Shown piece by piece: positions 856 to 34,424 of a stretch of 64,000 bases of DNA; the stretch's first letter is position 1, and the number at the start of each line of letters is the position of its first letter. A program made the translations under genes and the position numbers. This DNA is from Brevibacillus sp. SYP-B805 (GTDB lineage Bacteria; Bacillota; Bacilli; Brevibacillales; Brevibacillaceae), in NCBI RefSeq assembly GCF_011059135.1, contig NZ_JAALGD010000020.1:1-64000 (forward strand). The letters run 5' to 3'. Below the pieces are notes generated by a model, which worked only from the letters and a program-made list of their open reading frames with translations, was not told the origin of the DNA and searched no databases.

Positions 856-962
856 GGGCCCCCGCCGACACCAGCAAGTGACCCCACTCGGCAAAGCATT
901 AGCGATCGCCGAGTGGGTGGATCGTTCGCTTGGGTCGGCGGGGTTATTTTTCCGCTTCTTCC
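856..962. repeat. Nested GC-rich palindromic repeat (REP/terminator-like family, copy R1).
   Basis: gggcccccgccgac...ccactcggcaaagc...gccgagtgg...gtcggcggggtt then a T-run. The outer arms cccccgccgac/gtcggcgggg enclose an inner hairpin ccactcggc/gccgagtgg. It lies between convergent genes, and the encapsulin stop (944-946) sits inside its right arm. Confidence 0.7.
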
Positions 963-1792
963 AGCGTGCAGATGGCGCTGGGGCGCTTGATGCGCAGCAC
1001 AACGCATTCATACACGCGGAAGACGCTGTTCATCTGTTCGTCCTCCATAAACGCAGTATTGAAATCTTCCGCGATGGCCAGATCGAGATTGTGGCGGCCG
1101 CACGACACCAGCACGCCGGCACGACCCTGGATGGCTGGCGTTTGGTAGACGCCCTCTGTCACCAGGCTGCGGATATGTTCGATTTCCAGGACGTTGGTTC
1201 CCTGATGCACACGATGGAGGAGCGAATACAGCTCCGGGGAGACCGCCAGTGCGTAAGGGCCGCTGTGCCCCATCTTCAGCAGCTTGTTGCGGGCTTCCAC
1301 GATATCGGCGAACGCATTGCCCGACTCCATCCAGTCGCTTTTCAGGTGGGTGAGCCTGCCTGTCACGTTCATCAAGCCGGGCAGCTCGAACGCCGGGGAA
1401 CCATTGAAGATGAGATCGTCCTCCAGGAGCGCGCACCCGGCGGCGGCATTGGCCGCCCCGCTGAAGTCGAGGGGAATGCCGAGCGTCCGCGCTTGCGAGA
1501 TGTCGCGCCAGTAAAGAACAAAATCGTTGTAGAGGATCGGAATCGTCAGGCTGACCCGCCGGCTGGGCTGGGTAAGTTCAAGGCCTTCGCCGCGCAGGTT
1601 TAACGCGCCGACACGCGATTCCTCATAGAGATCGTTGCTGATCGCCTGGATTCCTTCCCCCAACGGGCCGTAGATGTCAATGAACCGGCGGCCCACCAGC
1701 TGGCGCCGGGCCATCTCGACAACCGTTTCGTCAAGCTGGCGCCATTCGTCGGGGGAGAGGGGGGCGTCCGGAAATTTGTGATGCTTCTCCAT
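944..1792 (-). CDS. Family 1 encapsulin shell protein (linocin M18-like), 282 aa.
   Basis: Translation from the ATG at 1792 reads MEKHHKFPDAPLSPDEWRQLDETVVEMARRQLVGRRFIDIYGPLGEGIQAIS, the conserved family-1 encapsulin N-terminus. GGAGG lies 6 nt upstream (gaatGGAGGtatcatATG). The rest aligns with the HK97-fold shell protein through ...VFRVYECVVLRIKRP. Confidence 0.85.
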   Translation of the reverse strand: MEKHHKFPDAPLSPDEWRQLDETVVEMARRQLVGRRFIDIYGPLGEGIQAISNDLYEESRVGALNLRGEGLELTQPSRRVSLTIPILYNDFVLYWRDISQARTLGIPLDFSGAANAAAGCALLEDDLIFNGSPAFELPGLMNVTGRLTHLKSDWMESGNAFADIVEARNKLLKMGHSGPYALAVSPELYSLLHRVHQGTNVLEIEHIRSLVTEGVYQTPAIQGRAGVLVSCGRHNLDLAIAEDFNTAFMEDEQMNSVFRVYECVVLRIKRPSAICTLEEAEK

Positions 1793-2380
1793 ATGATACC
1801 TCCATTCCAAGCGTGATGAGCGTAGACTGCCAACGGCCAGCCCTTTTCCGGCGGGGAAACGGGGAGGAGGCTGCCTCCTTGCCGAAGCCAGCAGATGGTC
1901 CACCTGATGGATCGCGTGCCCTTCATCGTGATCCTCGACGGAAATGACGGCGCCGTGGTCGGACAAGCGTTCGCTCAGGGCTGCCATGATCTCCTTGACG
2001 GTCAGGTAATCGCTTTGGGTCTCTTCGCGCGTCCGGTTCAACCATTCTCGTTTCTCCGGATCGGTGAACTCATAGAGAGACAGCTCCAGATGCTCGCGAA
2101 AATTGTGCAGGCCGAAGCGTTCCAGATTGATGTCGGAAAGCAGGCGCGACAGCTCCCGGTCGCTCAGCTGCTCGCTGCCGGCAGTCAGGGAACGCAGATA
2201 GGGCAGCAGCTCGTTTAGCCGGCCGAGGCGCTGCTCTTCTTCTTCCATGATATGGTGGTAATAAAGACGCGTATGTTCATCCTGCGCATGGTCGACGATC
2301 GGCTGCAGCAGGGCGAGGAAACCGCCGATCGCTTCCCGGGTGCGGGTGAGGATGCTTTCAAGCTGCGAGAAGGCTTGCAA
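1793..2380 (-). CDS. Putative ferritin-like/IMEF-type encapsulin cargo protein with a C-terminal targeting peptide. It reads through in frame into the encapsulin ORF with no stop codon.
   Basis: The ORF starts at TTG 2380 (GGAGG 9 nt upstream). It is acidic and helical (DHAQDEHTRLYYHHIMEEEEQRL...EHLELSLYEF) and ends ...FPAGKGLAVGSLRSSRLEWRYH, which matches the encapsulin targeting-peptide consensus (G-x-L-x-V/I-G-S-L-R/K). The same frame continues into Met-1 of the encapsulin. I re-translated the junction by hand and found no stop. Confidence 0.6.
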
Positions 2381-3074: not shown

Positions 3075-3275
3075 ATGTTTGGGGTATGGCGTAATGGGGC
3101 CAGGCGAGCTCCTTTGACGACCGACGAAGCGGAGAAACAAAGACGCGGGGGCCACAGGGGGCGTGAGTCTCACATCCCTGAGACGCCCGGATGTTGAGCC
3201 CCCTGCCCGCGTCGCGTTTCGGAGCGGACAAAAGCCCACTTCCTCGCGGGTCGTCAAGAGAGCGAGCAGGAACCA
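3075..3275 (+). repeat. Full-length copy (B) of the ~190-nt structured repeat.
   Basis: atggcgtaatggggccaggcgagctcctttgacgaccg...gggcgtgagtctcacatccctgagacgccc...tgagccccctgcccgcgtcgcgtttcggagcgg...cgggtcgtcaagagagcgagcaggaaccat. The 5' segment gagctcctttgacgaccg is complementary to the 3' segment cgggtcgtcaagagagc, giving a long closing stem. There is an internal hairpin gggcg-tgag-tctca/tgagacgccc. Confidence 0.65.
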
Positions 3276-3367
3276 TTACCCAAGATCGACCGACCATATC
3301 TGCACATGGACCCCGTTGTCATAACGGGGTTTTTGCCGTTGAGCATCGCTTACGTAGGCGGGGTTAT

Positions 3368-3610
3368 TTAATCCAGAACCAGCCGGGCCAGATGCGGTTT
3401 CAGTGAATTAATGCCGATCGCAAAGCCCAGGCATTGGCTGGATTGAATGATAAAGGCGTTTAAGCCGACCACCTCCCCGTGCAAATTGATGAGCGGACCG
3501 CCGCTGTTGCCCGGATTGATCGCCGCATCGGTTTGAAAAATCTCTTCATAGTGGCGTTTGGCCACCTGCAGACGCCGGTTTTTGGCACTGATGATGCCGG
3601 CCGTGACCGG
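3368..3610 (-). pseudogene. C-terminal fragment of a trypsin-like (S1C/HtrA-type, no PDZ) serine protease gene, separated from its 5' half by the ~8.6 kb insertion.
   Basis: Minus-strand translation reads ...[58 protein letters not shown]..., which is the catalytic-Ser motif GNSGGPL. The frame is closed by TAG immediately upstream at about 3611. The N-terminal half (His/Asp region) is at 12195-12734. Confidence 0.75.
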
Positions 3611-3625
3611 ATTCTCACGTAAAGC

Positions 3626-5233
3626 CTAAAACGGCGGACGGAGATGCAGCTGACCGTTCAGGCGGAACGCGACCTCCAGGGTAAAGGGCGTGATGCGGCT
3701 GCCGGTCTGTTTTTCCCGGCGCGTGAGCCGCACCGATTCGATGAGGAAGCGCAGCAGCCTGTTTTTCTCCGCCTTGCCGCTCAAGGCGTGATAAACGGCG
3801 GGGAACGATTGGAGCCGCTCGGCGAGCCGTTCTTTTTGCCCATCATCCAGCTGTTGGGGAGACGGCTGTTTTTCTTTAAGGAGCATGTTCAGCCTGCCCA
3901 ATTGATCGGATATCTCTGACCGTCTCCGGATAAACTCCTCGGAAGTGTATACCCCGGTCTCAAAGCCGTGGTAGACGGCGGCCAGCTGTTTTTGCAGGGA
4001 TGTCCGCTGCCTGGACAGGGCGGCGGCGGATCGGTCGGCTGGGGAGGCTCGGCGCTGCTTTCCGGCCGCTGCATGGGCAGCGATCATGCGGCGGATCCGC
4101 TCCGGCGCGGGCGGCTCGACGCAGGCGAGAAAGGAGAGAAGCATCTCTTCCACGGCCCGGTACTTCACATAGGTGCAGCCTGCGGTTGTGCACCAGAGCA
4201 TCTCCTTTTCATAGACGCTCACGCTGCCGTCCTTTTTGCGATAGGTACAGCGGGAAGCCTGCCGCACCATCTTTTTGCCGCACAGTCCGCAGCGGATCAG
4301 GCCGGATAGTTCCGACGGGCTCTGGTCGAGAGGGATGGAGGGGCGGCGGCGCTGCCGTTTGTGATGCACCTGCTGGTACACGTCGGGAGAGATGATGGGG
4401 GGATGGGCATTTGGTACGATGATCCATTCGTCCGGCGGCCGTCTCGCGCGTTTCCGCTGTGTCTCAACCGTCGTGCTGTAGCGGATCTCCCCGATATATA
4501 CCGGATTGTGCAGGATTTTTTTAACCGCAGAGGCATTCCATTCCGGTAGCCCGGTGGGGGAAGGAATGCCGCTGTTGGTCAGGAGGGAGGCGATGGTCCG
4601 GCAGCCCAGCTCTCTCCCGTTCAGGCCCTCCAGGTACAGCCGGTAGATCAGCCGGACGACTTCCGCTTCCCCTGGCTCGATCACCAACCGCTGTGTCCTC
4701 GGATTGGTCCGGTAGCCGTAGGCGGGCCTGGAGCCCATGAAGCGTCCCGACATGGCGTAGGCGTATTTGGCCCCCTGCATCCGTTCGCGAATGGTTTCAA
4801 ATTCCTCGCGGGAGAGAAACATTTCGAAACGGATCTGCCGCAGATCGTTGACATTTTTGGGATCATACAGCCGGTAGGGGGTCAGGATGAAGATCCGTTT
4901 CCGACGGATCAGCTCGTAGACCCGTCCGTAATCCTGAAAATCGCCCCGCGTCAGCCGGGAGATTTCTTTCACGGCGATGCAGTCGTACCTGCCCTCCTCC
5001 AGATCAGCCAGTACCTGGCTGAAGACGGGCCGGGATTCGATCTTGTCGCCGCTGCCGATTTCCTCTGCGAGGTCGTAGGGAATGCCGTACTCGCCCAACA
5101 CGCGTTCCATGACGCTCCGCTGCATGGCGATGGTATCCTCGCCGGTCCGTTTTTCCCGTTCCGCATCTTCCCGGGAACGGCGGAGGTAGCTGACGATCCG
5201 CCTGATTCTTGCGCCTGCCGGCAGTTTGTTCAT
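3626..5233 (-). CDS. Large serine recombinase (535 aa; resolvase catalytic domain, recombinase domain, zinc ribbon).
   Basis: N-terminus ...IVSYLRRSREDAE...RPVFSQVLADLEEGRYDCIAVKEISRLTRG is resolvase-like. The central part PAYGYRTNPRTQRLVIEPGEAEVVRLIYRLYLEG...IPSPTG...WNASAVKKILHNPVYIG is recombinase-like. CGLCGKKM...C..GC is a zinc ribbon, followed by a C-terminal coiled coil. Confidence 0.85.
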   Translation of the reverse strand: MNKLPAGARIRRIVSYLRRSREDAEREKRTGEDTIAMQRSVMERVLGEYGIPYDLAEEIGSGDKIESRPVFSQVLADLEEGRYDCIAVKEISRLTRGDFQDYGRVYELIRRKRIFILTPYRLYDPKNVNDLRQIRFEMFLSREEFETIRERMQGAKYAYAMSGRFMGSRPAYGYRTNPRTQRLVIEPGEAEVVRLIYRLYLEGLNGRELGCRTIASLLTNSGIPSPTGLPEWNASAVKKILHNPVYIGEIRYSTTVETQRKRARRPPDEWIIVPNAHPPIISPDVYQQVHHKRQRRRPSIPLDQSPSELSGLIRCGLCGKKMVRQASRCTYRKKDGSVSVYEKEMLWCTTAGCTYVKYRAVEEMLLSFLACVEPPAPERIRRMIAAHAAAGKQRRASPADRSAAALSRQRTSLQKQLAAVYHGFETGVYTSEEFIRRRSEISDQLGRLNMLLKEKQPSPQQLDDGQKERLAERLQSFPAVYHALSGKAEKNRLLRFLIESVRLTRREKQTGSRITPFTLEVAFRLNGQLHLRPPF

Positions 5234-5318
5234 GGACTCACCCCGCTCGAACCAGGATAAGGAGAGCGCCCTTGTCAGGAGCGTCTCCTTGTTATCCAGT
5301 TTATTCGGCGATCCGTGA

Positions 5319-5795
5319 TTAATCCCAGATCAGGGGCCGCTCAAGCCCCGCCATCCGCATGTACTGCAGGAACTGGCCGGTATGCACCGCATCGTGGTAA
5401 GCGATGCGCAGCAGCATGTCACCCAGGGGGCGCTGATACCCGACATCGCTGCGGTCGATGATGCGCGTGTCCAGTTCGTCTTCATCCAGCGTCCGTATAT
5501 AGGCAAGGAACGCCTCAAACAGCGGTGTGCCCAGCGCGATTTCCCGTTCGACCGAGACGATCGGCTCCTCCTTGTAAGGAGCATCAGGGATCGCCGCATG
5601 GGCCGAACCGTTATGGAGAAGGATCTGATGGTACTCGAAGGTGGCCGTACACACATGACGGATCATTTCGCCAAAAGAGTAGGCTTCCTTGTCCGGCCTC
5701 CAGCCCAGCCACTCATCGGGCAGGGCTCGCCACGCAAGGATGGATCGGCGTCTGGTTTCTTGAAAATGAAGAATGATGGCATCGATGGCATTCAT
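5319..5795 (-). CDS. DinB/YfiT-like (DinB_2) metal-dependent hydrolase family protein (158 aa).
   Basis: ATG at 5795 with GAAGGAGG upstream. MNAIDAIILHFQETRRRSILAWRALPDEW...HDAVHTGQFLQYMRMAGL is typical DinB_2. The longer six-frame ORF (to 6407) is a GC-driven extension overlapping arsR on the other strand. Confidence 0.7.
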   Translation of the reverse strand: MNAIDAIILHFQETRRRSILAWRALPDEWLGWRPDKEAYSFGEMIRHVCTATFEYHQILLHNGSAHAAIPDAPYKEEPIVSVEREIALGTPLFEAFLAYIRTLDEDELDTRIIDRSDVGYQRPLGDMLLRIAYHDAVHTGQFLQYMRMAGLERPLIWD

Positions 5796-5861
5796 GGAAT
5801 AACCTCCTTCGCTCTGAATATCCCCATTGTACTGCATGAATGATTCGGTTATGATCGAAGT

Positions 5862-6563
5862 ATGAATGCATATCCTGATTTTGCCTATGTTGCCGGATTG
5901 ATCGGGGATCCCACCCGGGCGGCGATGCTGGACAGCCTTTTGGACGGCCGCGCTTTGCCGGCGAGTGAACTGGCTTATCTGGCCCGGGTATCGCCCCAGA
6001 CGGCCAGCGCCCATCTTGCCAAATTGGTCGAAGGGAAGCTGCTCGCGGTGGAGACGCACGGCCGTCACCGCTATTACCGTCTGGCCGGCGCGCATGTCGC
6101 CCAGGTGCTTGAGGCGCTGACCACCCTGGCGCCGCCCGTGCAGGTTCGGTCGCTCCGGCAGTCCGATCGGCTGAAGGAAGTGCGCCATGCCCGCACCTGC
6201 TATGACCATCTGGCCGGCCAGCTGGGGGTGGAGCTGACCCGGACGTTCGTGACGCGCGGATTCCTGCGGGAAGCGGATCGGGAGTACCGGATCACCGAGG
6301 TAGGGAAGCGCTGGTTTTCCGACTTTGGCATCGATGTGGAAGCGATCCGCCAAAAACGGCGCTCGCTTGCCCGTCCATGCCTGGACTGGAGCGAACGGCG
6401 CCACCATTTGGCGGGAGCATTGGGAGCCGCGCTTGCCAGCCGGCTGTTTGAGCTCGGCTGGATCGTTCGCGTCCCGTCAAGCCGCGCCGTGCGCATCACG
6501 GAGAAAGGGAGGGAACATTTGGCCCACCAGTTGGGCATCGAAACAGCAGGCCGGTTGACATAA
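5862..6563 (+). CDS. ArsR-family winged-helix transcriptional regulator with a C-terminal extension (233 aa).
   Basis: GLIGDPTRAAMLDSLLDGRALPASELAYLARVSPQTASAHLAKLVEGKLLAVETHGRHRYYRL is an ArsR/SmtB HTH. It is divergent from the DinB-like gene. Confidence 0.75.
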   Translation: MNAYPDFAYVAGLIGDPTRAAMLDSLLDGRALPASELAYLARVSPQTASAHLAKLVEGKLLAVETHGRHRYYRLAGAHVAQVLEALTTLAPPVQVRSLRQSDRLKEVRHARTCYDHLAGQLGVELTRTFVTRGFLREADREYRITEVGKRWFSDFGIDVEAIRQKRRSLARPCLDWSERRHHLAGALGAALASRLFELGWIVRVPSSRAVRITEKGREHLAHQLGIETAGRLT

Positions 6564-6847
6564 GACAATCCGCCGCTCACATACCCTTTTGGCGAGGGGG
6601 GAGCGAGGTGGAGCAGACGGCGCTGCTTGTCGTGAGAGGATCGTATGGGGAGATTCGCGTCACCCAGCCCGAAGCGCCTGCGCGCGAGTCTGAACTGGAG
6701 GAGCTGTATGCCTTTTTGATCGAAGCGCTGCTTCGGCAAGCGGACGGGGAACCGTCCGGCTAGCGTCTGCCGGCCAACTGCCCGGCAGGCTTTTTTTGTC
6801 AGAGAAGAAAGCTTAGTTCCTTAAAGTGATAAAGTGACAGGGAAAGG

Positions 6848-6896
6848 CTGGGGGCCCCGCCCGGCGCAGCGATAGCTCAAGCCGGGTGGGTTTTTT
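6848..6896. repeat. Short member of the GC-rich palindromic repeat family (R5).
   Basis: gggggccccgcccggcgcagcgatagctcaagccgggtgggtttttt, preceded by the family-typical AT-rich flank ttaaagtgataaagtgacag. Confidence 0.55.
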
Positions 6897-6985
6897 ATGC
6901 CCGCAGCGCATAATTACCGTTGTTCGATGGACTATATAACTGTCGATCTCTTCATCGTGGAGAAAAAGGCAGAAGGAGGTGAGCG

Positions 6986-7195
6986 GTGATGACGGTCGCC
7001 ATGCAGGTAAAGCAGACGCTGGCCAGCCTGAAAAGCGCCCAGGCCAACCTGGAAATGTTTGCGCTGGAAACGCAGAACAAGCAGGCGAAAGAGATGTACA
7101 CAAAGGCGGCACAAACGGCGAAAACCATCTGCGACACGCTGGAGAAGCGCGTTACGGAATTGGAGTTTGAGGAGCCGCAGTACAAAGGGTTTTGA
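6986..7195 (+). CDS. DUF1657 protein (69 aa), first gene of the spoVA2mob-type operon.
   Basis: MMTVAMQVKQTLASLKSAQANLEMFALETQNKQAKEMYTKAAQ... matches the DUF1657 family. GAAGGAGG lies upstream. Confidence 0.8.
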   Translation: MMTVAMQVKQTLASLKSAQANLEMFALETQNKQAKEMYTKAAQTAKTICDTLEKRVTELEFEEPQYKGF

Positions 7196-7227
7196 TTGCA
7201 GTGCGGGTATGTTAAGGAGGTTCATCC

Positions 7228-8088
7228 ATGCCGGGTTGGCTCACGATCATCATCACGTCCTTTGTCTCTCTGGCCTATCTCTTTACCCTGGCGAGGCTGA
7301 TCGGGAAACGGCAGATGTCCCAGCTGTCCTTCGTCGATTTCATCGTCGCGATGACGATCGGCTCGATTGCCGCTGAAATGGCCACCAATATCGACGGTTC
7401 CATCATCCATGGCATGATCGCCATGACCATGTTCGGCCTGTTTCCCATTGTCTCCGAATGGCTGGCAATGAAAAGCAAGGTGATGCGCAATTTTTTTGAA
7501 GGGAGCGCTACCGTTCTGATCAAGGACGGCAAGATCCTGGAAGACAATCTGAAGCAGGAGCGGCTGAATCTGGAAGACTTGATGGATATGCTGCGCAACA
7601 AGAACGTGTTCAAAGCGGCCGATGTGGAATTTGCCGTCATGGAACCGAGCGGCAAGCTGAGCGTGCTGTTGAAAGCGGAAAACCAGCCGTTGACGGCCAA
7701 ACAGTTGGGGCTGCAGGTCGCCCCGGCGGAAGAGCCGCAAAACGTGATCATGGACGGTCAGATCATGGATGAACCGCTGGCGACCATCGGCTTGAACCGC
7801 GCATGGCTGAAGGCGGAGCTGGAGAAAGCGGGCGTTGCGCTGGAAAATGTGTTTTTGGGCCAGGTGGACAAGGGCGGCCAGCTGTATCTCGATCTGTATG
7901 ACGACAAGATTCAGGTGGCCCAGCCGACGGCGATGAAGCTCACCTTTGCCACCCTGAAAAAATGTCAGGCGGATCTGGAGCTGTACGCGCTGGCCACCCA
8001 AAGCGAAAAGATGAAGAAGACCTATGCGGTGGAAGCCAAACGGTTGAAACAGCTGATTGAAAAAATGGAGCCGCATTTGATGCGGTAA
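7228..8088 (+). CDS. DUF421 (YetF-like membrane domain) fused to a C-terminal DUF1657 (the '2Duf' protein of spoVA2mob operons), 286 aa.
   Basis: The N-terminal TM region has the YetF-like core ...LLKAENQPLTAKQLGL.... The C-terminal 60 aa (MKLTFATLKKCQADLELYALATQSEKMKKTYAVEAKRL) repeats the DUF1657 motif. RBS AAGGAGG. Confidence 0.8.
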   Translation: MPGWLTIIITSFVSLAYLFTLARLIGKRQMSQLSFVDFIVAMTIGSIAAEMATNIDGSIIHGMIAMTMFGLFPIVSEWLAMKSKVMRNFFEGSATVLIKDGKILEDNLKQERLNLEDLMDMLRNKNVFKAADVEFAVMEPSGKLSVLLKAENQPLTAKQLGLQVAPAEEPQNVIMDGQIMDEPLATIGLNRAWLKAELEKAGVALENVFLGQVDKGGQLYLDLYDDKIQVAQPTAMKLTFATLKKCQADLELYALATQSEKMKKTYAVEAKRLKQLIEKMEPHLMR

Positions 8089-8102
8089 GGAGGGTGTGAG
8101 GG

Positions 8103-8579
8103 ATGGCTGACCACAAAAAGAAAAGGTTGACGCCTGTCCAGCTGCAGTACCAGGAGCTGGCCAAGCGGCATGAACCGCCCCGTCCGCTCGCCCGCAACTT
8201 CCTCCGCGCGTTTCTCGTCGGGGGGGTCATCTGCATCATTGGGCAGGCCATTCAAGAGATCTTTATCCGCTTCTTCCACTTTACGGAAAAAACGGCAAGC
8301 AATCCGACAGTGGCCGTCCTGATTCTACTTTCGGTGCTCCTGACCGGCTTTGGGGTTTATGACCGGATTGCCCAGTGGGCGGGAGCGGGAACAAGCGTCC
8401 CTGTCACCGGCTTTGCCAATTCGATCGCCTCCGCGGCCATCGAGCATCGAAGCGAAGGATACGTGTTGGGCGTGGGGAGCAACATGTTTAAACTGGCCGG
8501 GTCGGTCATTGTGTTCGGCGTTTTTTCCGCATTCGTCATCGGGGTGATCAAGGCGATCTGGAAAATGGGGTGGCAGTAG
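8103..8579 (+). CDS. spoVAC: Stage V sporulation protein AC (SpoVAC), 158 aa.
   Basis: ...FLRAFLVGGVICIIGQAI...IAQWAGAGTSVPVTGFANSIASAAIEHRSEGYVLGVG is characteristic of SpoVAC. RBS GGAGGG. Confidence 0.9.
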   Translation: MADHKKKRLTPVQLQYQELAKRHEPPRPLARNFLRAFLVGGVICIIGQAIQEIFIRFFHFTEKTASNPTVAVLILLSVLLTGFGVYDRIAQWAGAGTSVPVTGFANSIASAAIEHRSEGYVLGVGSNMFKLAGSVIVFGVFSAFVIGVIKAIWKMGWQ

Positions 8580-9584
8580 ATGCTGACAGGCCATCAAACC
8601 TGGGTATTTGCAAACAAACCGGTCATCGTCGGGTCGTCGGCCATCGGGGGCCCTTTTGAAGCAAAAGGACCGCTTGCCGACGATTTCGATACGACGCACG
8701 GCGACCTGATGCTGGGGCAGGACAGTTGGGAAAAGGCGGAGAAGGTGCTGTTCGAGGAAGCGAGCGACAAGGCGATCGAAAAAGCCGGATTGACCAAGGA
8801 GAAGATCCGTTTCCTGATCGGCGGCGATCTGCTGAACCAGCTCATATCCGCCAGCTTTGCCGCCCGCACGCTGGCCATCCCTTATCTGGGGGTGTTTGGC
8901 GCGTGTTCGACCGCCATGGAAAGCTTGGCGCTCGCCGCCCAGCTGGTCGATTCCCAGGCGGCCGATTATGTGTTGGCCGTCACGGGCAGCCACAACGGCG
9001 CGGCGGAAAAGCAGTACCGGTATCCGACCGAGTACGGTTCGCAAAAGCCCCCCACGGCCCAGTGGACGGTGACGGGGGCGGGGGCTGCCGTGGTGGCAAG
9101 AGAGGGCAGCGGCCCGCGGATCACGTCCGCCACGATCGGACGGGTCGTGGACATGGGGCTGTCCGATCCGTTCAACATGGGGGCGGCGATGGCACCGGCG
9201 GCGCTCAGCACCATTGAGGCTCACTTTCGCGACAGGCAGCTCGACTTCTACCATTACGATCTGATCGTGACCGGGGATCTCGCGCGGGTAGGCCACGCCA
9301 TCCTGTCCGAACTGCTGCCCAAGCACAATATCAAGATTCCGCTGGAGCGCTATGTGGATTGCGGCATGCTGATCTACGGGGACAACCCTGCCGTTTGGGC
9401 CGGGGGAAGCGGCTGCGGCTGCTGTGCCACCGTCACCTACGGCCATCTGCTGAACCGGATGCGGGAAGGCAAATGGCACCGCATGCTGGTGGTGGCGACC
9501 GGGGCGCTGCTGTCGCCCATGTCGTATCAGCAGGGCGAAAGCATTCCCTGCATCGCGCACGCCGTCTCCATCGAAAACGAGTAA
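8580..9584 (+). CDS. spoVAD: Stage V sporulation protein AD (SpoVAD), 334 aa.
   Basis: The thiolase-like fold with GDLLNQLI...GVFGACST...ERYVDCGMLIY matches SpoVAD. Its start abuts the spoVAC stop. Confidence 0.9.
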   Translation: MLTGHQTWVFANKPVIVGSSAIGGPFEAKGPLADDFDTTHGDLMLGQDSWEKAEKVLFEEASDKAIEKAGLTKEKIRFLIGGDLLNQLISASFAARTLAIPYLGVFGACSTAMESLALAAQLVDSQAADYVLAVTGSHNGAAEKQYRYPTEYGSQKPPTAQWTVTGAGAAVVAREGSGPRITSATIGRVVDMGLSDPFNMGAAMAPAALSTIEAHFRDRQLDFYHYDLIVTGDLARVGHAILSELLPKHNIKIPLERYVDCGMLIYGDNPAVWAGGSGCGCCATVTYGHLLNRMREGKWHRMLVVATGALLSPMSYQQGESIPCIAHAVSIENE

Positions 9585-9597
9585 GGGAGGACGAAAG

Positions 9598-9948
9598 ATG
9601 ACGTTTCTCTGGGCGTTTCTCGTCGGGGGAAGCATCTGTTTGCTGGGGCAGTTTTTGATGGATGTGGTAAGGCTTACCCCTGCGCATACCATGTCTGCAC
9701 TGGTCGTGGCCGGGGCGATTCTGGACGGTCTCGGCCTGTACGAGCCGCTGATCGATTTCGCCGGAGCGGGGGCGACCGTACCGATTACCAGCTTCGGCAA
9801 CGCCTTGGTGCACGGGGCGATGGCCGAGGCGGAGCGGCATGGTCTGGTCGGCGTCATCACCGGCATTTTCGAAGTGACCAGCGCGGGGATCTCGGCGGCG
9901 ATCGTCTTTGGCTTTTTTGCCTCGCTGGTGTTTCGTCCCAAAGGATAA
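9598..9948 (+). CDS. spoVAEB: Stage V sporulation protein AEb (SpoVAEb), 116 aa.
   Basis: MTFLWAFLVGGSICLLGQFLMD...FAGAGATVPITSFGNALVHGA. RBS AGGGAGG. Confidence 0.85.
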   Translation: MTFLWAFLVGGSICLLGQFLMDVVRLTPAHTMSALVVAGAILDGLGLYEPLIDFAGAGATVPITSFGNALVHGAMAEAERHGLVGVITGIFEVTSAGISAAIVFGFFASLVFRPKG

Positions 9949-10031
9949 TGGCAGGGAACGTGGCAACACGGCCGTGACCGAGTTTTCCAAACCAAGCGGA
10001 GAACCGCCTGCATCCATAGGGCTGCATGGGG

Positions 10032-11465
10032 CTAGTGAAACTCAATGCGCGTGATGGCAGGAGGGCGGCTTTCCGCCTGTATGTTTTTCACCAGGATGGT
10101 GATGAGCTGTTTTTTTTCCCGAATGGTGGCAAACGGCCACACCCGCGTCCAGTCGGTGAGGAGGGGAACAAGCTCTCCGCCGCGCGGGGAACGGCCGGCC
10201 TGCGCCGCCAACAGGGAGCGCAAAGCCGCTTCCTGCTCGCCGGCCTCCTCCATCCGCTCCCGAAAACGTTCCAGCGTGAGGGCCCCTTCCGCATAGGCCT
10301 GTTCCCACCGCGCCACCATCTGCTGCAGTTTTTCCAACTGTCCCTCCAGCAGGCGGCCAGGAAGGGAGAGCGTGCGCGTTTGCAGCGCTGCTTCGGCCAG
10401 GTCGGCTGCGCTGGCAACCCGCGTCAACCATGGCAGAAACAGCGCTTCCAGGCGGTCTTCCCGGATGGAGGCGGACGGACAGCTTTTTCGTTTCCGGTTT
10501 TGGCAGACGTAATACCGGTTGGTGTAGCGCTTTCCCGTCTGGTTGCGCGTGCGGATCGTTTTGCCGTACATGGGGGCCTCGCAATCGGCGCAGAAGAGGA
10601 CGCCGGAAAAGGGAAAATCGGAAGCCAGCGCGCGGGGATGCTGCCGGGTCCGCGCCTGCTGCAGCCGTTGGACGAGAAGAAACGTCTCTTTGTCGATGAT
10701 GGCGTCGTGCGTCCCCTCCCGGATGATCCAGCTGTCCGGGCTGTTTCTTTTTTGGCCGCCCTCGGCGTAATTCCAGCGCAGGGCGCCATAATAGACCGGA
10801 TTTTTCAGCATATGGGAGAGGGTCGTTTGATTCCACGGGCCGCCCGTCCGGCTCCGGAAGCCAAGGCGGTTCAGCTCGTCGGCAATGCCGCTGATCCCGA
10901 CCCCCGCGAGATATCTGGCGAAAATCAGGCGGACGAGATCCGCTTCCATCGGCTCCACATGCAGGACGCCATCCTGCAGCCGATACCCATAGGGGGGCGG
11001 GCCGCCCGGCCGTTTCTGCTCGCGCGCCATCTGCCCCATGCCCAGTTTGACGCGTTCCGCCAGATTTTCCCGCTCCCACTGTGCCAGCGCCGCCACCAGG
11101 GTGATAAAGAGGCGGCCGATCGCCGTTGTGGTGTCGTACACTTCCGTGCAACTGCGAAAGGAGACGCCATGCCGCTCCCATTCTTCCAGCAGGGAATAGA
11201 GGTCGAGCACGGACCGTGTCAGCCGATCCAGCCGATATACCAGGACGACATCGACCGCCCCCCTGCGTACATCGCGCAGCAGGCGCTGCAAGGCGGGACG
11301 GTCCGTATTTTTGGCGCTGTATCCCTCATCGATGTAGCAATCGTGAATGTGCATCCCCTGCGAACAGGCGAACCAGGTCAGCTTCTCCCGCTGGGCGGAG
11401 ATGGAGAAGCCCTCTTTGGCCTGTTCCTCGGTGCTCACGCGGATATAGAGCGCGGCCCTGTTCAC
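10032..11465 (-). CDS. Large serine recombinase (477 aa).
   Basis: GTG start with GAGGTGA upstream. (M)NRAALYIRVSTEEQAKEGFSISAQREKL... is the catalytic Ser motif. It has a recombinase domain, zinc ribbon (CADCEAPM...C) and coiled coil. Confidence 0.9.
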   Translation of the reverse strand: MNRAALYIRVSTEEQAKEGFSISAQREKLTWFACSQGMHIHDCYIDEGYSAKNTDRPALQRLLRDVRRGAVDVVLVYRLDRLTRSVLDLYSLLEEWERHGVSFRSCTEVYDTTTAIGRLFITLVAALAQWERENLAERVKLGMGQMAREQKRPGGPPPYGYRLQDGVLHVEPMEADLVRLIFARYLAGVGISGIADELNRLGFRSRTGGPWNQTTLSHMLKNPVYYGALRWNYAEGGQKRNSPDSWIIREGTHDAIIDKETFLLVQRLQQARTRQHPRALASDFPFSGVLFCADCEAPMYGKTIRTRNQTGKRYTNRYYVCQNRKRKSCPSASIREDRLEALFLPWLTRVASAADLAEAALQTRTLSLPGRLLEGQLEKLQQMVARWEQAYAEGALTLERFRERMEEAGEQEAALRSLLAAQAGRSPRGGELVPLLTDWTRVWPFATIREKKQLITILVKNIQAESRPPAITRIEFH

Positions 11466-11516
11466 GGCATCATCACCTCACGATTCGCGGATTATCCTGC
11501 TAGATCGGAAAGTAAG

Positions 11517-11610
11517 GCTGGGGCCCCCGCCGACAACAGCAAGGGCCACACTCGGCACAGCGATAGCTATCGCCGAGTGGGTGGAGACTCAGCTTAAGTC
11601 GGCGGGGTTA
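11517..11610. repeat. Nested GC-rich palindromic repeat (R2).
   Basis: ggggcccccgccgacaacagcaagggccacactcggcacagcgatagctatcgccgagtgggtgga...gtcggcggggtta. Confidence 0.7.
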
Positions 11611-11715
11611 GTTAATTTGATCATACAGGGATGGGACGCCGCATATGCCTTTATCGGGCACAAAAAAGCCTCATCCTCCTGTCGATCGATCGGACAAGGA
11701 AGGATCAGGCGTCCG

Positions 11716-12045
11716 TTACATCCATTTATGGCTCCATTCTTCAATGGATTCTATCACAGGCCGGAGATCCGTACCTTTCTGCGTCAGCTGGTATTCGATG
11801 CGCACCGGCGTTTCCGGGTATACTTTCCGTTCGATGATGCCTTCTTCTTCCAGTTCCTTCAACCGCTCTGACAGCATCTTGTCGCTCATCTGCGGGACGA
11901 TTTCCCTGACATCCTTGAAACGGACGGGACCTCCCAACAGGACGCGGATGATCAGCCCGGTCCAGCGTTTGCCCAGTATGCTGATCGCCGCTTCGTATTT
12001 CGGACACATTTGCGATTTCGGATTCGATTGGTCCATGCGGCACAC
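11716..12045 (-). CDS. HxlR-family (MarR-like) transcriptional regulator (~105 aa).
   Basis: CPKYEAAISILGKRWTGLIIRVLLGGPVRFKDVREIVPQMSDKMLSERLKELEEEGIIERKVYPETPVRIEYQLTQKG is the HxlR signature. Confidence 0.8.
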   Translation of the reverse strand: MCRMDQSNPKSQMCPKYEAAISILGKRWTGLIIRVLLGGPVRFKDVREIVPQMSDKMLSERLKELEEEGIIERKVYPETPVRIEYQLTQKGTDLRPVIESIEEWSHKWM

Positions 12046-12194
12046 TCCTGTACTTCTGTTCTACCTCTTTACTGTACCATAATAACTTGACAAAAGTAAG
12101 TGGCGGATTCCAGGCATTCCTGCTGACGGGCTTCCCGCACGGCAGGCGCGGCCGCCACGCGGGGGAAACATATGGCTTGCAGCCCTATGCCGCA

Positions 12195-12734
12195 AGTCGG
12201 CGAACCGATGCTTACTACCCATTCGCCCACTTTCGTTTCAGCGGAATCGCCGAGTGGGAGCGGCTTCAGCAGGGTGTTGGCGTTTATTTTGAGTACCGCA
12301 TAATCCCGCGTACGATCGCTTGCGATCCGTTCCGCCTCGAAGACCCGGCCGTTGTAAAGCTTGACGAGGGTCGATTTCGATTTGCCGATGACATGTTCGC
12401 TCGTCAAAATGTAACCGCGCGGATGAAAGATAAAGCCTGAGCCAAAACTGCGCTCCGTTGTATATGTTTCAATCGAAGGCTGAGTCACGAGAAAATCGCG
12501 CAGGAACTGGTCGAGCGGCCCGCCGTTGGACTTGTCTTCCGACACGATGGAGACGACCCCCTCTTTCACCTGTTCGACCAGAGGGACGAAAAAATTGAAC
12601 GGATGCAAACTGCTGCTCACCGGATAATTTTTCCTTACATATGCGGACCATTTTCGATGTTTCATCCACAGATCCTCCCACAGCAGATAGGTATGTATCA
12701 TTCTATGGCTGAGGGGGGAGGGAGGGACGCCCAA
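12195..12734 (-). pseudogene. N-terminal portion of the interrupted trypsin-like serine protease gene.
   Basis: ...GSGFIFHPRGYILTSEHVIG...DYAVLKINANTLLKPLPLGDSAETKVGEWVVSIGSP contains the catalytic His and Asp regions. After SIGSP the frame runs into unrelated sequence, the element junction, and stops at 12069. Confidence 0.7.
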
Positions 12735-12891
12735 TTATTGTCAGGCGGTCATGTGTAACCATGGCTATCATTGATACAGAAATAGTATTGGTATAATAAA
12801 ATTTTTCATTTTATAATAAAAATGAACAGGAGGCTATTTTTTTTGTACTTGTTGAGTTTGAGCTTGCAGAGGCTAGTCTGGAGGATGCTGT

Positions 12892-13428: not shown

Positions 13429-13545
13429 CCGGATACCGCGTCCCCGTGTGGAACCAAAAAAGCGAAATTCCCCCGCACATTTCGCTTTTTGTTTGGCAGA
13501 TCGGAAATTTAAAGCTGTTTAAAGTGATAAAGTGACGAAGAAAGT

Positions 13546-13594
13546 TTGGGGGCCCCCGCCGACACCAGCGTTAGCCAAAGTCGGCGGGGTTATT
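13546..13594. repeat. Minimal GC-rich palindromic repeat (R3). It probably acts as a bidirectional terminator between convergent genes.
   Basis: gggggcccccgccgacaccagcgttagccaaagtcggcggggttatttt, preceded by the flank aaagtgataaagtgacgaagaaagttt. Confidence 0.6.
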
Positions 13595-16833: not shown

Positions 16834-16948
16834 GGGGGCCCCCGCCCACACAATTTTTACAGGGGTCCCCAAAAAGTACTCGGATTAAGCTTCGAAGGTC
16901 AACGTCATTATTTGGGGTTTAGCCTAGCTTAAGTCGGCGGGGTTATTT
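16834..16948. repeat. GC-rich palindromic repeat with a type-II insert (R4).
   Basis: gggggcccccgcccacac...ggggtccccaaaaag...aagcttcgaagg...taagtcggcggggttattt. The insert is shared with the copy at 41950-42070. Confidence 0.6.
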
Positions 16949-19124
16949 ATTCCCAGAAGAGTTCCAGCTTGTCCCCGTTTTTCAATTCCGTTTGGAAAGA
17001 GGCGGGCTCGCCGTTGATCAGCGTCGTCAGCCGTGAAACACCCTCTCCTCTGGGCTTTTCAAGCGAGACATCCACATAGCGGAACACATCGCTGAACAGC
17101 GGGGCTTTCTCCCCCGGTGTTACTTTTACCGTGATGACCGCGCCATCATGGATCACCTCATCGGCAGAGACCGCCTTGCCATCCATGGTGATGGCGACTT
17201 GGGCGGTAGGCAGCGTCACGGGAATGCCGTTGAAGTGGACTTTGATCTCTTCCTGTACCCATTCTTCCGGCGGAATAATCTCTCTGACCGTCGGCAGCGG
17301 GAGCGCTTTGACCGCAAACGCCAGATGATCGCCCGAACGCACGCGCTCCGTGAAGGAAGCGGGACTGCCGTTCACCGACAGCTGGATGTCGCAGCGCGGC
17401 AGCGCGTAGTCCCGGCCGTTCAGGGTAAAGCGGACCTGGCTTGCGGAGGAATCCAGTTCGGCGGTATGGCCGGTTTCCCGCAGCACCTCTTCCACCGTGC
17501 GTGGCATCCGGATCTCCACAATATCCCGGTCCTGCAGCGGTGTGGAGAGCGGACACGCCTGGCCGTTGACCAGCGCGATCGGTCCCAGCCGGTGCGATTC
17601 CCCATTGATGAAGCATTCAAACAGCTCTTCTTCGTCGAGGAGGTCGCTGACCTGGACCCTGGCCTCGTCCCCGTCCCTGCCCGGCACCACCACGATGCTG
17701 TCGTTGTCGGCGATGGGGGTGTCCAGCGCGGCTGTTTCCCCGTTTCTGGTGATAATGGGCGGGGTGCCGTGGCCGCCGGGAATGATCTTCATGCGGCCGT
17801 TCACCGTCAGGGTCATCGCCAGACCCGGTCTGCCGTACAGGCGGCGAATATCCAGACCTGCCGCGATCAGGGCATCGCCCAGCGTCATTTTGCGCAGGTC
17901 GAAGATGCGGATCGGCGTCTCATTGACCGTCACCGTCACATACCTGATCGGATGGCGGCGGGCGGCGACGGCAATCCCGACAGGCGTCACGAACTCCGGT
18001 CCGTTGATAAGAGGATGGGTATCGACGAACTGCTGGATGGCATCGGCGCCGCGCACCGCGACGCGGTTTGCCGGAATCTCCAGCATGCCGGCCACCTTTT
18101 CGGTCAGCTTCGGTGTCTGGCTGCCGCCGCCGATCAGCATGACCGCTTGCGGGGGCTTGCCGTTCAACTCCAGGATTTTTTCGGCAATTTTTTGCGCCAG
18201 TTGGGTAATGTCGCTGTCAATGGCCGCTACGACCTCGGTGGAGGAGAGGGTGTGTTCCATTCCGAGAATATCCCGGAAGGTGACCGACTCGTGGGCAGTC
18301 AGCGCCCGTTTCACTTCCTCCGCCATGGGGAAGTCGAGCAGGAAGGCATTCATCAGGGCGTCCGTGATCTCGTCGCCGGCGACCGGCACCATGCCGTATG
18401 CGGTGATCGCCCCTTCCTCGGTAAGGGCGATGTCGGAAGTGCCCGCGCCGATATCGACCAGCGCGATGTTGAGCCGGCGCATGGTTACCGGGATCAAGAC
18501 GTTGATGGCGGCAATCGGCTCCAGGGTAAGGGCCTGCATGTCCAGACCGCAGCGTTTCAGCGCAGCCAGGAGCGAATCCACGACCACGCGCGGCAGGAAG
18601 GTGGCGATCACATCGATGGCCGCTTTCTCTCCGCGCTGGTCGATCAAGCTGCCGATCAGCTCGCCGTCCAGATAATAGTTGACCACGCTGTAGCCCACAC
18701 AATAGTAGCGGGTAACATCTTGTTCGTTCAACTCCTGGGCCAGCTGCGCCTGGGCCTCCTGCACGGCGGAAAACTCCAGGGTGAGCACGTCCTCCTTGCT
18801 GAAGGCGGTTTGCTTGGCGATCTCCATCTCCATGCGGACGCGGCGGGTCCTCAGCGAGCGTCCCGCGGCGGCGACGGCCACCCTTGTGAGCGGACCGTGC
18901 TTTTCTTCCAGGCGGGCTTTTACCTGGGAGATCACCTTGGCCACGGCCACCACATCGTGAATCTGTCCATCCAGCATGGAGCGTTCGCTGTGTTCCTGGA
19001 TGGCGCAGTCAATCACGCGAAACTTGTCGCCCACAGGCTCCACGATCAAGCCCACGACACTGCGGGTCCCGATATCTAAAGCAAATATTCTCTCTTGCGA
19101 ATCTTCTCGCGCGTCGTGTGACAA
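16947..19124 (-). CDS. Actin-fold ATPase of the FtsA/PilM/EutJ type with a long beta-rich C-terminal extension (725 aa).
   Basis: The N-terminal ~380 aa has ALDIGTRSVVGLIVE, DIGAGTSDIAL and IGGGSQTPKL, the ASKHA phosphate-1/2 and adenosine motifs. The C-terminal ~340 aa contains repeated ~80-aa segments. TTG start with AGGAGTGA upstream. Confidence 0.6.
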   Translation of the reverse strand: MSHDAREDSQERIFALDIGTRSVVGLIVEPVGDKFRVIDCAIQEHSERSMLDGQIHDVVAVAKVISQVKARLEEKHGPLTRVAVAAAGRSLRTRRVRMEMEIAKQTAFSKEDVLTLEFSAVQEAQAQLAQELNEQDVTRYYCVGYSVVNYYLDGELIGSLIDQRGEKAAIDVIATFLPRVVVDSLLAALKRCGLDMQALTLEPIAAINVLIPVTMRRLNIALVDIGAGTSDIALTEEGAITAYGMVPVAGDEITDALMNAFLLDFPMAEEVKRALTAHESVTFRDILGMEHTLSSTEVVAAIDSDITQLAQKIAEKILELNGKPPQAVMLIGGGSQTPKLTEKVAGMLEIPANRVAVRGADAIQQFVDTHPLINGPEFVTPVGIAVAARRHPIRYVTVTVNETPIRIFDLRKMTLGDALIAAGLDIRRLYGRPGLAMTLTVNGRMKIIPGGHGTPPIITRNGETAALDTPIADNDSIVVVPGRDGDEARVQVSDLLDEEELFECFINGESHRLGPIALVNGQACPLSTPLQDRDIVEIRMPRTVEEVLRETGHTAELDSSASQVRFTLNGRDYALPRCDIQLSVNGSPASFTERVRSGDHLAFAVKALPLPTVREIIPPEEWVQEEIKVHFNGIPVTLPTAQVAITMDGKAVSADEVIHDGAVITVKVTPGEKAPLFSDVFRYVDVSLEKPRGEGVSRLTTLINGEPASFQTELKNGDKLELFWE

Positions 19125-24340: not shown

Positions 24341-24545
24341 TCTGGGGATGGTTGGGCCCCCGCCGACAACAGCAAGAGACTCCGCCTGGCAAAGCGTTCG
24401 CTGGCACCGAGTGGGGTGGAGCGTTAGCATTAAGACGGCGGGGTATGGTAGGGGGCCTACCCGGCGCAGGGAGGGACCCCACTCGGCAAAGCATTAGCTG
24501 GCGCCGAGTGGGTAGAGCGATAGCTCAGGCCGGGTGGGGTTTCTT
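24341..24545. repeat. Two tandem nested palindromic repeats of the GC-rich family (R6).
   Basis: gggcccccgccgacaacagcaag...ggcaaagcgttcgctggcaccgagtgggg...gacggcggggtatgg, then gggggcctacccggcgcaggg...ccactcggcaaagcattagctggcgccgagtggg...caggccgggtggggtttc. It lies between convergent genes. Confidence 0.6.
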
Positions 24546-26990: not shown

Positions 26991-27132
26991 GCAGGTGATT
27001 CACCTCGGTTTCCTTGAGATTCCTTCCACTTTCATTATAACGGAGCGGTGCGCTTTTCACTCCATGTCCGTTTGACAACTTTTTGCCCAGAGAGGAGCCA
27101 TCTTCTCATTGTATAGACAAAGTCTGTCCTGT

Positions 27133-27325
27133 CATGGATGATGGTTCCCGCTCGCTCTCTTGACGACCGGCGAGGAAGTGGGCTTTTGTCCGCTCCGAAA
27201 CGCGACGCGGGCAGGGGGCTCAACACATCCGGGTGTCTCAGGGATGTGAGACTCACGCCCCCCGTTTCCCCGCGTCTGCGTTTCTTCGCTGAGTCGGTCG
27301 TCAAAGGAGCTCGCGTAGGCCCCAT
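27133..27325 (-). repeat. Full-length copy (C) of the ~190-nt structured repeat, reverse orientation.
   Basis: Its reverse complement aligns with copy B over ~190 nt (catggcgtgatggggcctacgcgagctcctttgacgaccgac...gaaccatcatccatga) with about 10 substitutions, including compensatory-looking changes in the stem. Confidence 0.65.
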
Positions 27326-34378: not shown

Positions 34379-34424
34379 GATTTTGTCTGCACACTGGGGT
34401 TTTCTAAGTATATCGAAAGGTTTA

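Follow-up and report, generated by a model that had tools for sequence, protein, structure and literature searches.

Two tandem large serine recombinase elements divide a protease gene of Brevibacillus sp. SYP-B805 into three pieces

What has divided a serine protease gene of Brevibacillus sp. SYP-B805, and is the gene still made whole somewhere? The gene lies on the minus strand of a 64,000-nucleotide stretch of DNA (positions 1 to 64,000 of contig NZ_JAALGD010000020.1, hereafter the window) and encodes an S1C (HtrA-like) protease without a PDZ domain and without a signal. A sequence-only reading of the window had recognised that a trypsin-like protease gene is split there, with His and Asp in its N-terminal part and the GNSGGP serine in its C-terminal part, and had ascribed the split to one 8.6 kb element. 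The Pfam matches of the two parts bear out the split itself (Table 1). The gene is, however, in three pieces, and the 8.6 kb between its outer parts consists of two independent elements, designated A and B, each with its own large serine recombinase (LSR) and with 26 bp between their crossovers.

Intervening elements have been described for sigK, spsM, spoVFB, spoVR, gerE and yabG. In the literature searched, the coverage of which was incomplete, no intervening element was reported in a Brevibacillus protease gene, no two elements were reported in one gene of a spore former, and spoVA2mob, the operon to which the cargo of the present locus had been likened, was reported only on Tn1546. In this study, we examine the pieces of the protease gene, the attachment (att) sites and contents of both elements, and the evidence on whether the gene is reassembled and in which cell.

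A protease gene in three pieces

Directly after the stop codon of LSR2, the recombinase gene of element A, the minus strand reads GGTTCTCCGCTTGGTTTGGAAAACTCGGTCACGGCCG, which encodes GSPLGLENSVTA and is followed by the 3' end of spoVAEb. This micro-exon (10000-9969) is genuine protease sequence. It is kept as LGLENSVTA/T, with differences that are mostly synonymous, in the window, in a relative known from a JGI metagenome (locus L084), in B. migulae (L088) and in B. fluminis (L090). An in-silico join of 12665-12202, 10000-9969 and 3597-3368 yields a 726-nt open reading frame (ORF) of 241 residues with a His-Asp-Ser triad, and the product of this double join equals the orthologue consensus exactly at both joins. 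The expectation that a splice would give a full-length protease matching its orthologues was thus borne out, but with three pieces that include the micro-exon and not by a direct two-part join. Similarly, the N-terminal half that had been placed at 12195-12734 does contain protease sequence, but its start codon is at 12665 and genuine sequence extends to about 12202.

Uninterrupted orthologues of about 238 residues, found by searching with the joined protease, are present in several Brevibacillus species and in related spore-forming genera, and among the close matches the family is limited to spore-forming Bacillales. In Brevibacillus sp. H7 the synteny around the intact gene is that of the window (M29 peptidase, PadR, protease, small ORF, DUF2325, IMEF cargo, encapsulin). 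A pattern scan of the genome collection, built from the protease alignment, returned generic HtrA proteases of every phylum and no Brevibacillus locus; the comparative loci were gathered by finding contigs that encode the proteins.

In the integrated state the catalytic residues are divided, His and Asp being confined to piece 1 and Ser to piece 3. The frame of piece 1 continues into element A and stops at 12069, its tail being unrelated sequence. Could the fragments be translated separately and assemble into an active protease without any DNA rearrangement? Both large fragments are under selection, as described below, which would suit such a scheme. Piece 3, however, begins with neither a ribosome-binding site nor a start codon (the first in-frame start, of GVG type, is 14 codons in), the nine-residue micro-exon has no means of expression, and the break falls inside the second beta-barrel of the chymotrypsin fold. 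Assembly from separate fragments is therefore extremely improbable.

The two elements occur apart from each other in other species. With the same synteny, B. brevis has element A only, in the order N-half, YheCD, HxlR, LSR, and then GSPLGLENSVTAGIIS leading into the C-half. Element B alone, again in the same synteny, is found in B. dissolubilis and in Brevibacillus sp. B_LB10_24, where the N-half runs through ...LGLENSVT before the break and an SprA-like LSR abuts the C-half. Both elements, with the micro-exon between them, are present in the window, B. migulae, B. fluminis and the JGI metagenome organism. Because A-only, B-only and A+B genomes exist, the elements are autonomous. Each recombinase gene also ends against its own right-hand site, with the stop codon of LSR1 17 nt from the attR_B core and that of LSR2 about 25 nt from the attR_A core.

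These arrangements bear on the view that the 8.6 kb is a single composite element, bounded by the two recombinases and excised whole between the outer junctions at 12197 and 3610. Cassettes with two recombinases do exist, the CcrAB pair of SCCmec being a generally known example, and a single outer join at a shared CTT (12194/3621) is in frame. This join was rejected, as its product (GSPTLRENPVT) exchanges the conserved LGLENS for TLRENP and ignores the micro-exon. Furthermore, the outer junctions (3560-3630 and 12170-12220), at which inverted half-sites had been anticipated, are neither partner sites nor dyad partners, and each part stands alone at its own site in other species, with its own attL/attR core. 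The two recombinase genes that had been placed immediately inside the junctions are both real, but the HxlR gene lies between LSR2 and the N-terminal junction, and LSR2 has its 3' end against an att site internal to the 8.6 kb. We consider a single composite element to be very improbable, and hold the structure of two tandem elements and a gene in three pieces with high confidence.

The micro-exon supplies a half-site to both recombinases, B' to LSR2 and B to LSR1. SprA, the SPβ recombinase, needs a 44-bp attB, or 22 bp per half-site (PMC5499854). The 26-32 bp between the crossovers are therefore just long enough for one half-site per side, and either element could excise first.

Table 1. Pieces of the protease gene, elements A and B, and their features in the window
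Feature	Position	Strand	Remarks
Protease piece 1	12202..12665	-	ATG at 12665; residues 1 to ~155; His91 and Asp121; ends ...VGEWVVSIGS; Pfam Trypsin_2 profile 1-104, orthologue alignment, in-silico join
Protease piece 2 (micro-exon)	9969..10000	-	32 nt; (..S)PLGLENSVTA; contains the core of element B
Protease piece 3	3368..3597	-	GIISAKNRR...GNSGGPL...stop; catalytic Ser197; Pfam Trypsin_2 profile 98-144 (fragment 3368-3622)
Predicted rebuilt attB_A joint			ATCGGTTCTCCGCTTGG
Predicted rebuilt attB_B joint			CTCGGTCACGGCCGGCATC
Element A	10001..12201	-	2,201 bp; HxlR-family regulator and LSR2
attL_A	12181..12225	-	CGGTTC shared with attR_A at 12202-12207; P' arm contains CATAGGGCTGC
attR_A	9985..10030	-	P arm contains GCAGCCCTATG, inverted partner of CATAGGGCTGC; CGGTTC at 10001-10006
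Putative HxlR promoter/operator	12071..12102	-	TTACTT-N17-TGnTACAGT overlapping palindrome ACTTACTT-N5-AAGTnAnT
HxlR-family winged-helix regulator	11716..12045	-	Pfam HxlR, E 2.5e-32
REP-like hairpin repeat copy	11510..11616	-	between HxlR and LSR2
LSR2	10032..11465	-	477 aa; catalytic motif YIRVSTEEQ; Pfam Resolvase, Recombinase, Zn_ribbon_recom
Element B	3598..9968	-	6,371 bp; equivalently 3610-9980; 12-bp direct repeat CGGTCACGGCCG at 9969-9980 and 3598-3609
spoVAEb	9598..9948	+	NCBIfam TIGR02839, 170.9 bits (cut-off 131.1); stop ~20 nt from attL_B
spoVAD	8580..9584	+	Pfam SpoVAD, E 2.4e-155; above NCBIfam cut-off
spoVAC	8103..8579	+	NCBIfam TIGR02838, 205 bits (cut-off 164)
2Duf-type protein	7228..8088	+	286 aa; Pfam YetF_N, DUF421 and DUF1657
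DUF1657 protein	6986..7195	+	first operon gene; Pfam DUF1657, E 2.4e-21
Promoter-like sequence	6908..6938	+	GCATA-N19-CTATATA upstream of operon; GTATA and TATA conserved in B. migulae
51-aa ORF	6608..6763	+	motif G.YGEIRV..P....EL..LY.FL; candidate recombination directionality factor (RDF) for LSR1
sigmaE-like promoter motif	6558..6587	+	ACATAAG-N15-CATACCCT, 20 nt upstream of 51-aa ORF
ArsR/HTH_20-type regulator	5862..6563	+	233 aa; divergent from DinB and LSR1; Pfam HTH_20; NCBIfam HTH_metalloreg 54.8 bits (cut-off 55)
DinB_2 superfamily protein	5319..5795	-	158 aa; Pfam DinB_2, E 6.6e-17; 158-aa homologue in JGI relative (L087)
LSR1	3626..5233	-	535 aa; SprA/YokA family; YLRRSRED
attR_B	3585..3635	-	P arm GGCTTTACGTGAGAAT, dyad-related to P' arm TTGCCACGTTCCCTGCC at attL_B; core 3598-3609

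The two elements and their cargo

Element A is inserted in the Ser codon of the GSP motif, and the same unit of HxlR and LSR genes occupies this site in B. brevis (L081), the JGI relative (L084), B. migulae (L088) and B. fluminis (L090). Its attL and attR are identical over CGGTTC in the window and TCCCCGC at the JGI locus, and over 11-12 bp in B. brevis and B. migulae. These stretches coincide only at TC, with which the Ser codon of GSP opens, and we therefore infer that crossover takes place there (12202-12203). A crossover further downstream is excluded, as the extra A that follows CCG in attL_A of the window would put it out of frame, and the reconstructed attP_A contains a dyad, GCAGCCCTATG...CATAGGGCTGC, centred on the same TC. 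LSR2 is a generic LSR that matches the N-terminal domain of the TP901-1 integrase in the PDB (E 8.8e-32). The HxlR protein is 72-85% identical between A elements, above the conservation of LSR2. The region of its promoter and operator is conserved in four A elements, and in B. migulae the palindrome ACTTACTT-N5-AAGTAAGT is perfect. Judged by these motifs, the promoter is probably sigmaA-like with an extended -10 and the palindrome probably an autoregulatory operator. A tblastn comparison of all ORFs of at least 25 aa with three other A elements, made in search of a hidden small ORF, gave only alternative frames of HxlR and LSR2.

The B. brevis and B. migulae copies of element A also carry a YheCD-type ATP-grasp gene (L081 10497-11621 and L088 2657-3760, respectively), which is absent from element A of the window. 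The same type of gene is found in element B of Brevibacillus sp. B_LB10_24 (L092 7563-8669). The YheC and YheD proteins of B. subtilis are associated with the spore coat.

Element B interrupts the Val-Thr codons of ENSVTA, and its crossover most plausibly lies within GTCAC. The cores shared between attL and attR in five B elements are CGGTCACGGCCG, GTCACAGC, GTCACG, TCCGTCAC and CACAG, all of which overlap at CAC, and both P arms contain an ACGTG-type box, in inverted orientation. LSR1 is 38% identical to yokA of SPβ over 97% of its length (tblastn, E 3e-113) and matches the SprA structure PDB 9dxh over residues 9-526 (E 7.5e-118). It has Resolvase, Recombinase and zinc-ribbon domains (Pfam), and Y16-L17-R18-R19-S20-R21 is invariant in 15 homologues. 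LSR1 is a member of the SprA family with a site and a candidate partner of its own, not an SPβ orthologue. LSR1 and the 2Duf protein of the window are both 100% identical to SYP-B805 proteins. In IMG/VR, searched for a phage origin, the Brevibacillus clade of LSR1 (at least 50% identity) is absent and SprA relatives are at most 45% identical. Nothing conserved or assignable was found as a promoter of either LSR1 or LSR2.

The cargo of B elements differs by species. The window, B. migulae and the JGI organism carry the spoVA2 operon, B. dissolubilis has a Tad pilus cluster, B. fluminis has kdpFABC-D, and in Brevibacillus sp. B_LB10_24 YheCD is found with NlpC/P60. The B-type element of the closest metagenomic relative (JGI 3300061214, L087 1-3577) contains a 529-aa protein, a PadR regulator and three small ORFs that are absent from the window, so that cargo varies even between elements that carry spoVA2. 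The constant part is the LSR together with an ORF of about 50 aa (motif in Table 1), of which each of the 7 B-type elements examined has a homologue, irrespective of cargo. An AlphaFold2 model of the 51-aa ORF product in the window consists of a beta-hairpin and a helix (pLDDT 75).

In all of these seven elements, the motif kmATrrG-N14/15-CATAnnnT stands ahead of the small ORF, 20-30 nt from its start codon. In the whole window this pattern matches twice, against 1.15 matches expected by chance. Its shape fits the sigmaE consensus, which is about ZHATAxx-N14-CATACAHT. In SPβ, sprB has a mother-cell sigmaE/K-type promoter directly upstream, with transcription starting 20 nt before the start codon, and controls excision, while sprA is constitutive (PMC4191935). 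On the strength of this parallel, we propose that the ~50-aa protein is a directionality factor for LSR1 made in the mother cell.

The operon that had been taken for spoVA2mob, a foreign module conferring spore heat resistance, lies in the interval that separates the small ORF from attL_B. The DUF1657, DUF421-DUF1657, spoVAC, spoVAD and spoVAEb genes listed for it are all present by Pfam and NCBIfam, the calls for SpoVAC, SpoVAD and SpoVAEb resting on NCBIfam equivalog cut-offs. The name spoVA2mob does not fit. That operon, found on Tn1546, runs DUF1657, YhcN/YlaJ, C, D, Eb, DUF1657 and 2Duf, seven genes in all (PMC5133452). Extreme wet-heat resistance there depends mainly on 2Duf (PMC10126465). 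The spoVA2mob of B. subtilis, B. licheniformis and B. amyloliquefaciens shares DUF1657, 2Duf, SpoVAC, SpoVAD and SpoVAEb with the window, but the window operon has five genes in another order (DUF1657-2Duf-C-D-Eb) without a YhcN/YlaJ gene, and its vehicle is an LSR element without transposase, not a Tn3-family transposon.

Nor does the operon appear to be foreign. The 2Duf protein occurs in about half of spore-forming Bacilli (PMC10126465), and homologues with 63-67% identity are found in nearly all Brevibacillus species. B. brevis (L093) has the same five genes in the same order in an ordinary, non-mobile chromosomal context. SpoVAD of the window is 92, 87 and 80% identical to the copies of the JGI organism, B. 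migulae and core B. brevis, and the corresponding values for the host M29 peptidase are 92, 87 and 81%. Because the divergence of SpoVAD tracks that of a host gene, the operon seems to be the lineage's own, captured by the element, and is probably the resident spoVA2 operon of the genus and not an imported extra copy. No second 2Duf of SYP-B805 or B. migulae was among the matches of the 2Duf search, and the operon in element B is possibly the only copy of the lineage. Upstream of it, a GnATR -35 box would tentatively fit a forespore sigmaG/F promoter.

Selection on the split gene and its probable reassembly

Between interrupted genomes, the ratio of nonsynonymous to synonymous substitution rates (dN/dS) is 0.04-0.15 for both halves and 0.04-0.12 for the C-half alone, with synonymous sites near saturation. 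The C-half carries neither a stop codon nor a frameshift at any of the eight interrupted loci examined. Among the best 120 protease clusters, 42 break right after GSP, where element A is present, and 3 after LGLENSVT, with B only, against about 17 close relatives that are intact; the split state is thus the common one in the genus. Element proteins diverge in the same rank order as their host neighbours (LSR2 70/65/52% and LSR1 70/63% identity, against 92/87/81% for M29 peptidase and 80/73/67% for PadR), and copies of a host-wide REP-like repeat are present in both elements. This co-divergence and the host repeats argue for long vertical residence, and long residence with continued selection on the protein implies that the gene is reassembled somewhere.

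Programmed excision of some kind is, in our judgement, very likely. Removal of the elements is probable, the sporulating mother cell being the likeliest place for it, and we lean towards this account of the locus as a whole. The narrower claim, that excision is specific to the mother cell and uses the ~50-aa protein as RDF, draws on motifs and on the analogy with SPβ, and we put it at about even, with a slight leaning in its favour. Under this proposal each recombinase would join its own attL and attR, and the 241-aa ORF would be restored only after both had acted. The ~50-aa protein would serve LSR1 as its directionality factor, made from a mother-cell sigmaE-type promoter, as SprB does for SPβ. 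Excision of element B would be an event of the mother cell on its way to terminal differentiation, and in the forespore both elements would remain in the chromosome. Expression of the spoVA2 operon would fall to the forespore, in which element B stays integrated; the operon is kept there on condition that excision does not extend beyond the mother cell.

Several observations weigh against the proposed excision in the mother cell, and some of them would suit the simpler idea that ordinary integrative islands killed a dispensable gene, with no programmed excision, and that its halves are young pseudogene fragments. The protease is not among the known sporulation genes and is not recognised as essential; no literature on this Brevibacillus protease was found, within incomplete coverage. 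In B. dissolubilis (VCNA01000008, 11736-11965) the C-half is turned round with respect to both the N-half and the SprA-like recombinase, an arrangement consistent with decay. DNA beside the 5' end of the inverted C-half resembles the P' arm at the N junction, and the inversion looks like a recombinase-mediated event between attR and a secondary site, after which simple excision would not rebuild the gene. No JGI metagenome contig matched exactly the predicted junction attP_B, nor attB_B as rebuilt for the JGI relative, although this test is weak and uninformative. Part of the purifying selection may also be older than the insertions, should these have been recent and independent. A pseudogene is nevertheless improbable: the low dN/dS of a promoter-less C-half with near-saturated synonymous sites, the intact frames at all eight loci, the 27 nt of micro-exon codons kept in frame with mostly synonymous changes, the prevalence of the split state in the genus and the co-divergence of the elements with their host all speak for a gene in use.

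Other points against it concern the cell in which excision would take place. A search of five orthologous upstream regions for sigmaE, K, G, F and A patterns gave only loose sigmaK-like matches, in two of the five, and upstream of the protease there is a conserved CATACCTA box and no assignable sigmaE/K promoter. The protease gene is divergent to the PadR gene, and the intergenic region (12700-12890) holds two conserved blocks, TTATACCAATAnnATTTCTnTATTATATCAAT and CCATAnAATGATACATACCTATC, with operator-like repeats; PadR may control the protease in place of a sporulation sigma factor. For element A there is no candidate directionality factor except HxlR, and its promoter is of vegetative type. 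The 51-aa ORF, in turn, has no Pfam, PHROG or PDB profile match, the SprA-SprB fusion chain included, and a Foldseek search of the PDB with its model found no match to SprB, a known RDF or any fold.

The protease upstream region and the regulators could instead point to regulated excision outside the mother cell, by reversible switches ("regulated gene integrity") that sense through the HxlR-type (redox/electrophile), ArsR-type or PadR proteins, or by low stochastic excision. Each element encodes a sensor-type transcription factor, the HxlR gene with its sigmaA-like, probably autoregulated promoter stands directly upstream of LSR2, and regulated gene integrity outside sporulation is documented (PMC7192596). 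In contrast, the small-ORF promoter resembles mother-cell promoters in its -10 (CATA-type) and its -35 (kmATA-type) and does not have a sigmaA shape, and the closest characterised relative of LSR1 acts in just this manner during sporulation. Excision in dividing cells would, moreover, lose a non-replicating element, yet inheritance has been stable and vertical. We therefore regard a switch outside sporulation as unlikely and retain excision in the mother cell as the account that we favour.

Comparison with known systems and significance for the genus

The proposed likeness to the sporulation elements skin and SPβ holds in that a gene is interrupted by LSR-bearing DNA and can be rebuilt in frame, and in that LSR1 is an SprA homologue; it does not hold for one element. 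Element B most resembles SPβ in spsM of B. subtilis. Both have an SprA-type LSR of the same three-domain build with YLRRSR(E/Q)D, split a coding region, and have a long identical attL/attR core (12 bp in B, 16 bp in SPβ). Both also have a small gene with a sigmaE/K-type promoter (in B a putative one) some 20 nt upstream of the gene's start codon, the likely excision switch, although profile and fold searches detected no similarity of the 51-aa protein to SprB. The 16-bp SPβ core is ACAGATAAAGCTGTAT, with a central AA (PMC5499854), and differs from that of B: CGGTCACGGCCG with a probable CA/AC centre in B, against ACAGATAA/AGCTGTAT with AA in SPβ. Element B is 6.4 kb long and without phage genes, whereas SPβ is an active prophage of 134 kb, and B targets an S1C protease gene, not spsM, with variable host-type operons as cargo.

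Element A is akin in build to skin in sigK, which is excised by SpoIVCA. Skin elements of 2.6 kb that consist of two genes and have the recombinase at their edge have been described (10.1101/2022.02.25.481979), and element A shares with skin the two-gene unit, the LSR abutting att and, apparently, the wide vertical inheritance within a lineage. It differs in its target gene and in its companion gene, an HxlR-family regulator, and no RDF candidate such as Skr was found in it. Like B, the gin element in gerE of B. cereus is a non-phage element; an LSR (GirC) and a very small, unannotated protein of no known family (GirX, 42 aa) serve its excision (PMC5595907), as LSR1 and the ~50-aa protein would serve that of B. 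Further recombinase genes of gin take no part in excision (PMC5595907). As far as could be tested GirX has no sequence relation to the 51-aa ORF, GirX not being in the libraries searched. Whereas gin is one element with three recombinases, here two elements with their own att pairs occupy the same gene.

The heterocyst elements of Anabaena and Nostoc (nifD, fdxN with XisF, hupL) are likewise recombinase-bearing elements removed from genes in a terminally differentiated cell, in another phylum and cell type. Some cyanobacterial genes carry more than one such excision element, and XisF needs XisH and XisI. Both LSR2 and LSR1 score below the threshold of the NCBIfam XisF model (181 and 87 bits, cut-off 375). 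In SCCmec, CcrA and CcrB are two LSRs encoded in one inserted stretch that act together on a single att pair, in contrast to the separate att pairs found here and to the occurrence of each LSR alone elsewhere; the window LSRs are far below the cut-offs of the NCBIfam Ccr models.

Other features of the window lie near these elements or recur within them. At 944-2380 (minus strand) a single 478-aa ORF combines an IMEF-type ferritin-like cargo (Pfam IMEF_Flp, residues 7-138), which ends in the targeting-peptide-like LAVGSLRSS, with a Linocin_M18 encapsulin shell (residues 204-460). In B. brevis, Brevibacillus sp. H7 and B. fluminis the IMEF cargo and the encapsulin are separate genes of about 199 and 282 aa, and the 478-aa ORF reflects either a natural fusion of cargo and shell or a stop codon missed through a sequencing error. 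The REP-like hairpin repeat, of about 100 nt (GGGGCCCCCGCCGAC...GTCGGCGGGG), has at least six copies in the window; besides the copy in element A these include 845-952, 24354-24444, 24472-24541 and 63826-63887, with partial copies at 6852-6891 (in element B, downstream of the 51-aa ORF), 13538-13569, 16926-16949 and 34455-34504. A second intergenic repeat family, of about 110-160 nt and 87-94% identity, is represented at 76-180, 3130-3285, 27132-27288 (minus strand) and 34284-34393, one copy lying just downstream of the protease stop codon, and has no Rfam match. The only Rfam family match in the window is a T-box leader at 30812-31021 (plus strand; RF00230, 110 bits).

Taken at its fullest, and only tentatively, the locus would represent a genus-wide gene in three pieces, whose cytoplasmic HtrA-like protease could be made only after two unrelated serine recombinase systems had both fired in the mother cell, in the manner of an AND gate. 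It would further bring to light a new family of ~50-aa RDFs under sigmaE control, used by the second of these systems, and an SprA-type element used as a platform for cargo (spoVA2, kdp, a Tad pilus, coat- and wall-related genes), which would be kept in the forespore as in a germ line and discarded from the mother cell as from a soma, and which in this lineage would hold its own and possibly only spoVA2 operon. We rate this full account as doubtful, although possible.

Its parts are of interest individually. The protease gene is a new target of intervening elements, interrupted in most of the genus, and a single gene that needs two independent excisions by different recombinases is unreported for a spore former in the literature searched. 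The B-type elements form a family of small non-phage elements with swappable cargo, and their small protein is a candidate new directionality factor for SprA-type integrases, of practical interest because these are tools of genome engineering. For the organism itself, a spore-protection operon that is most likely the resident spoVA2, and not a Tn1546-type module, now resides in an element that, under the proposed scheme, must stay in the forespore chromosome.

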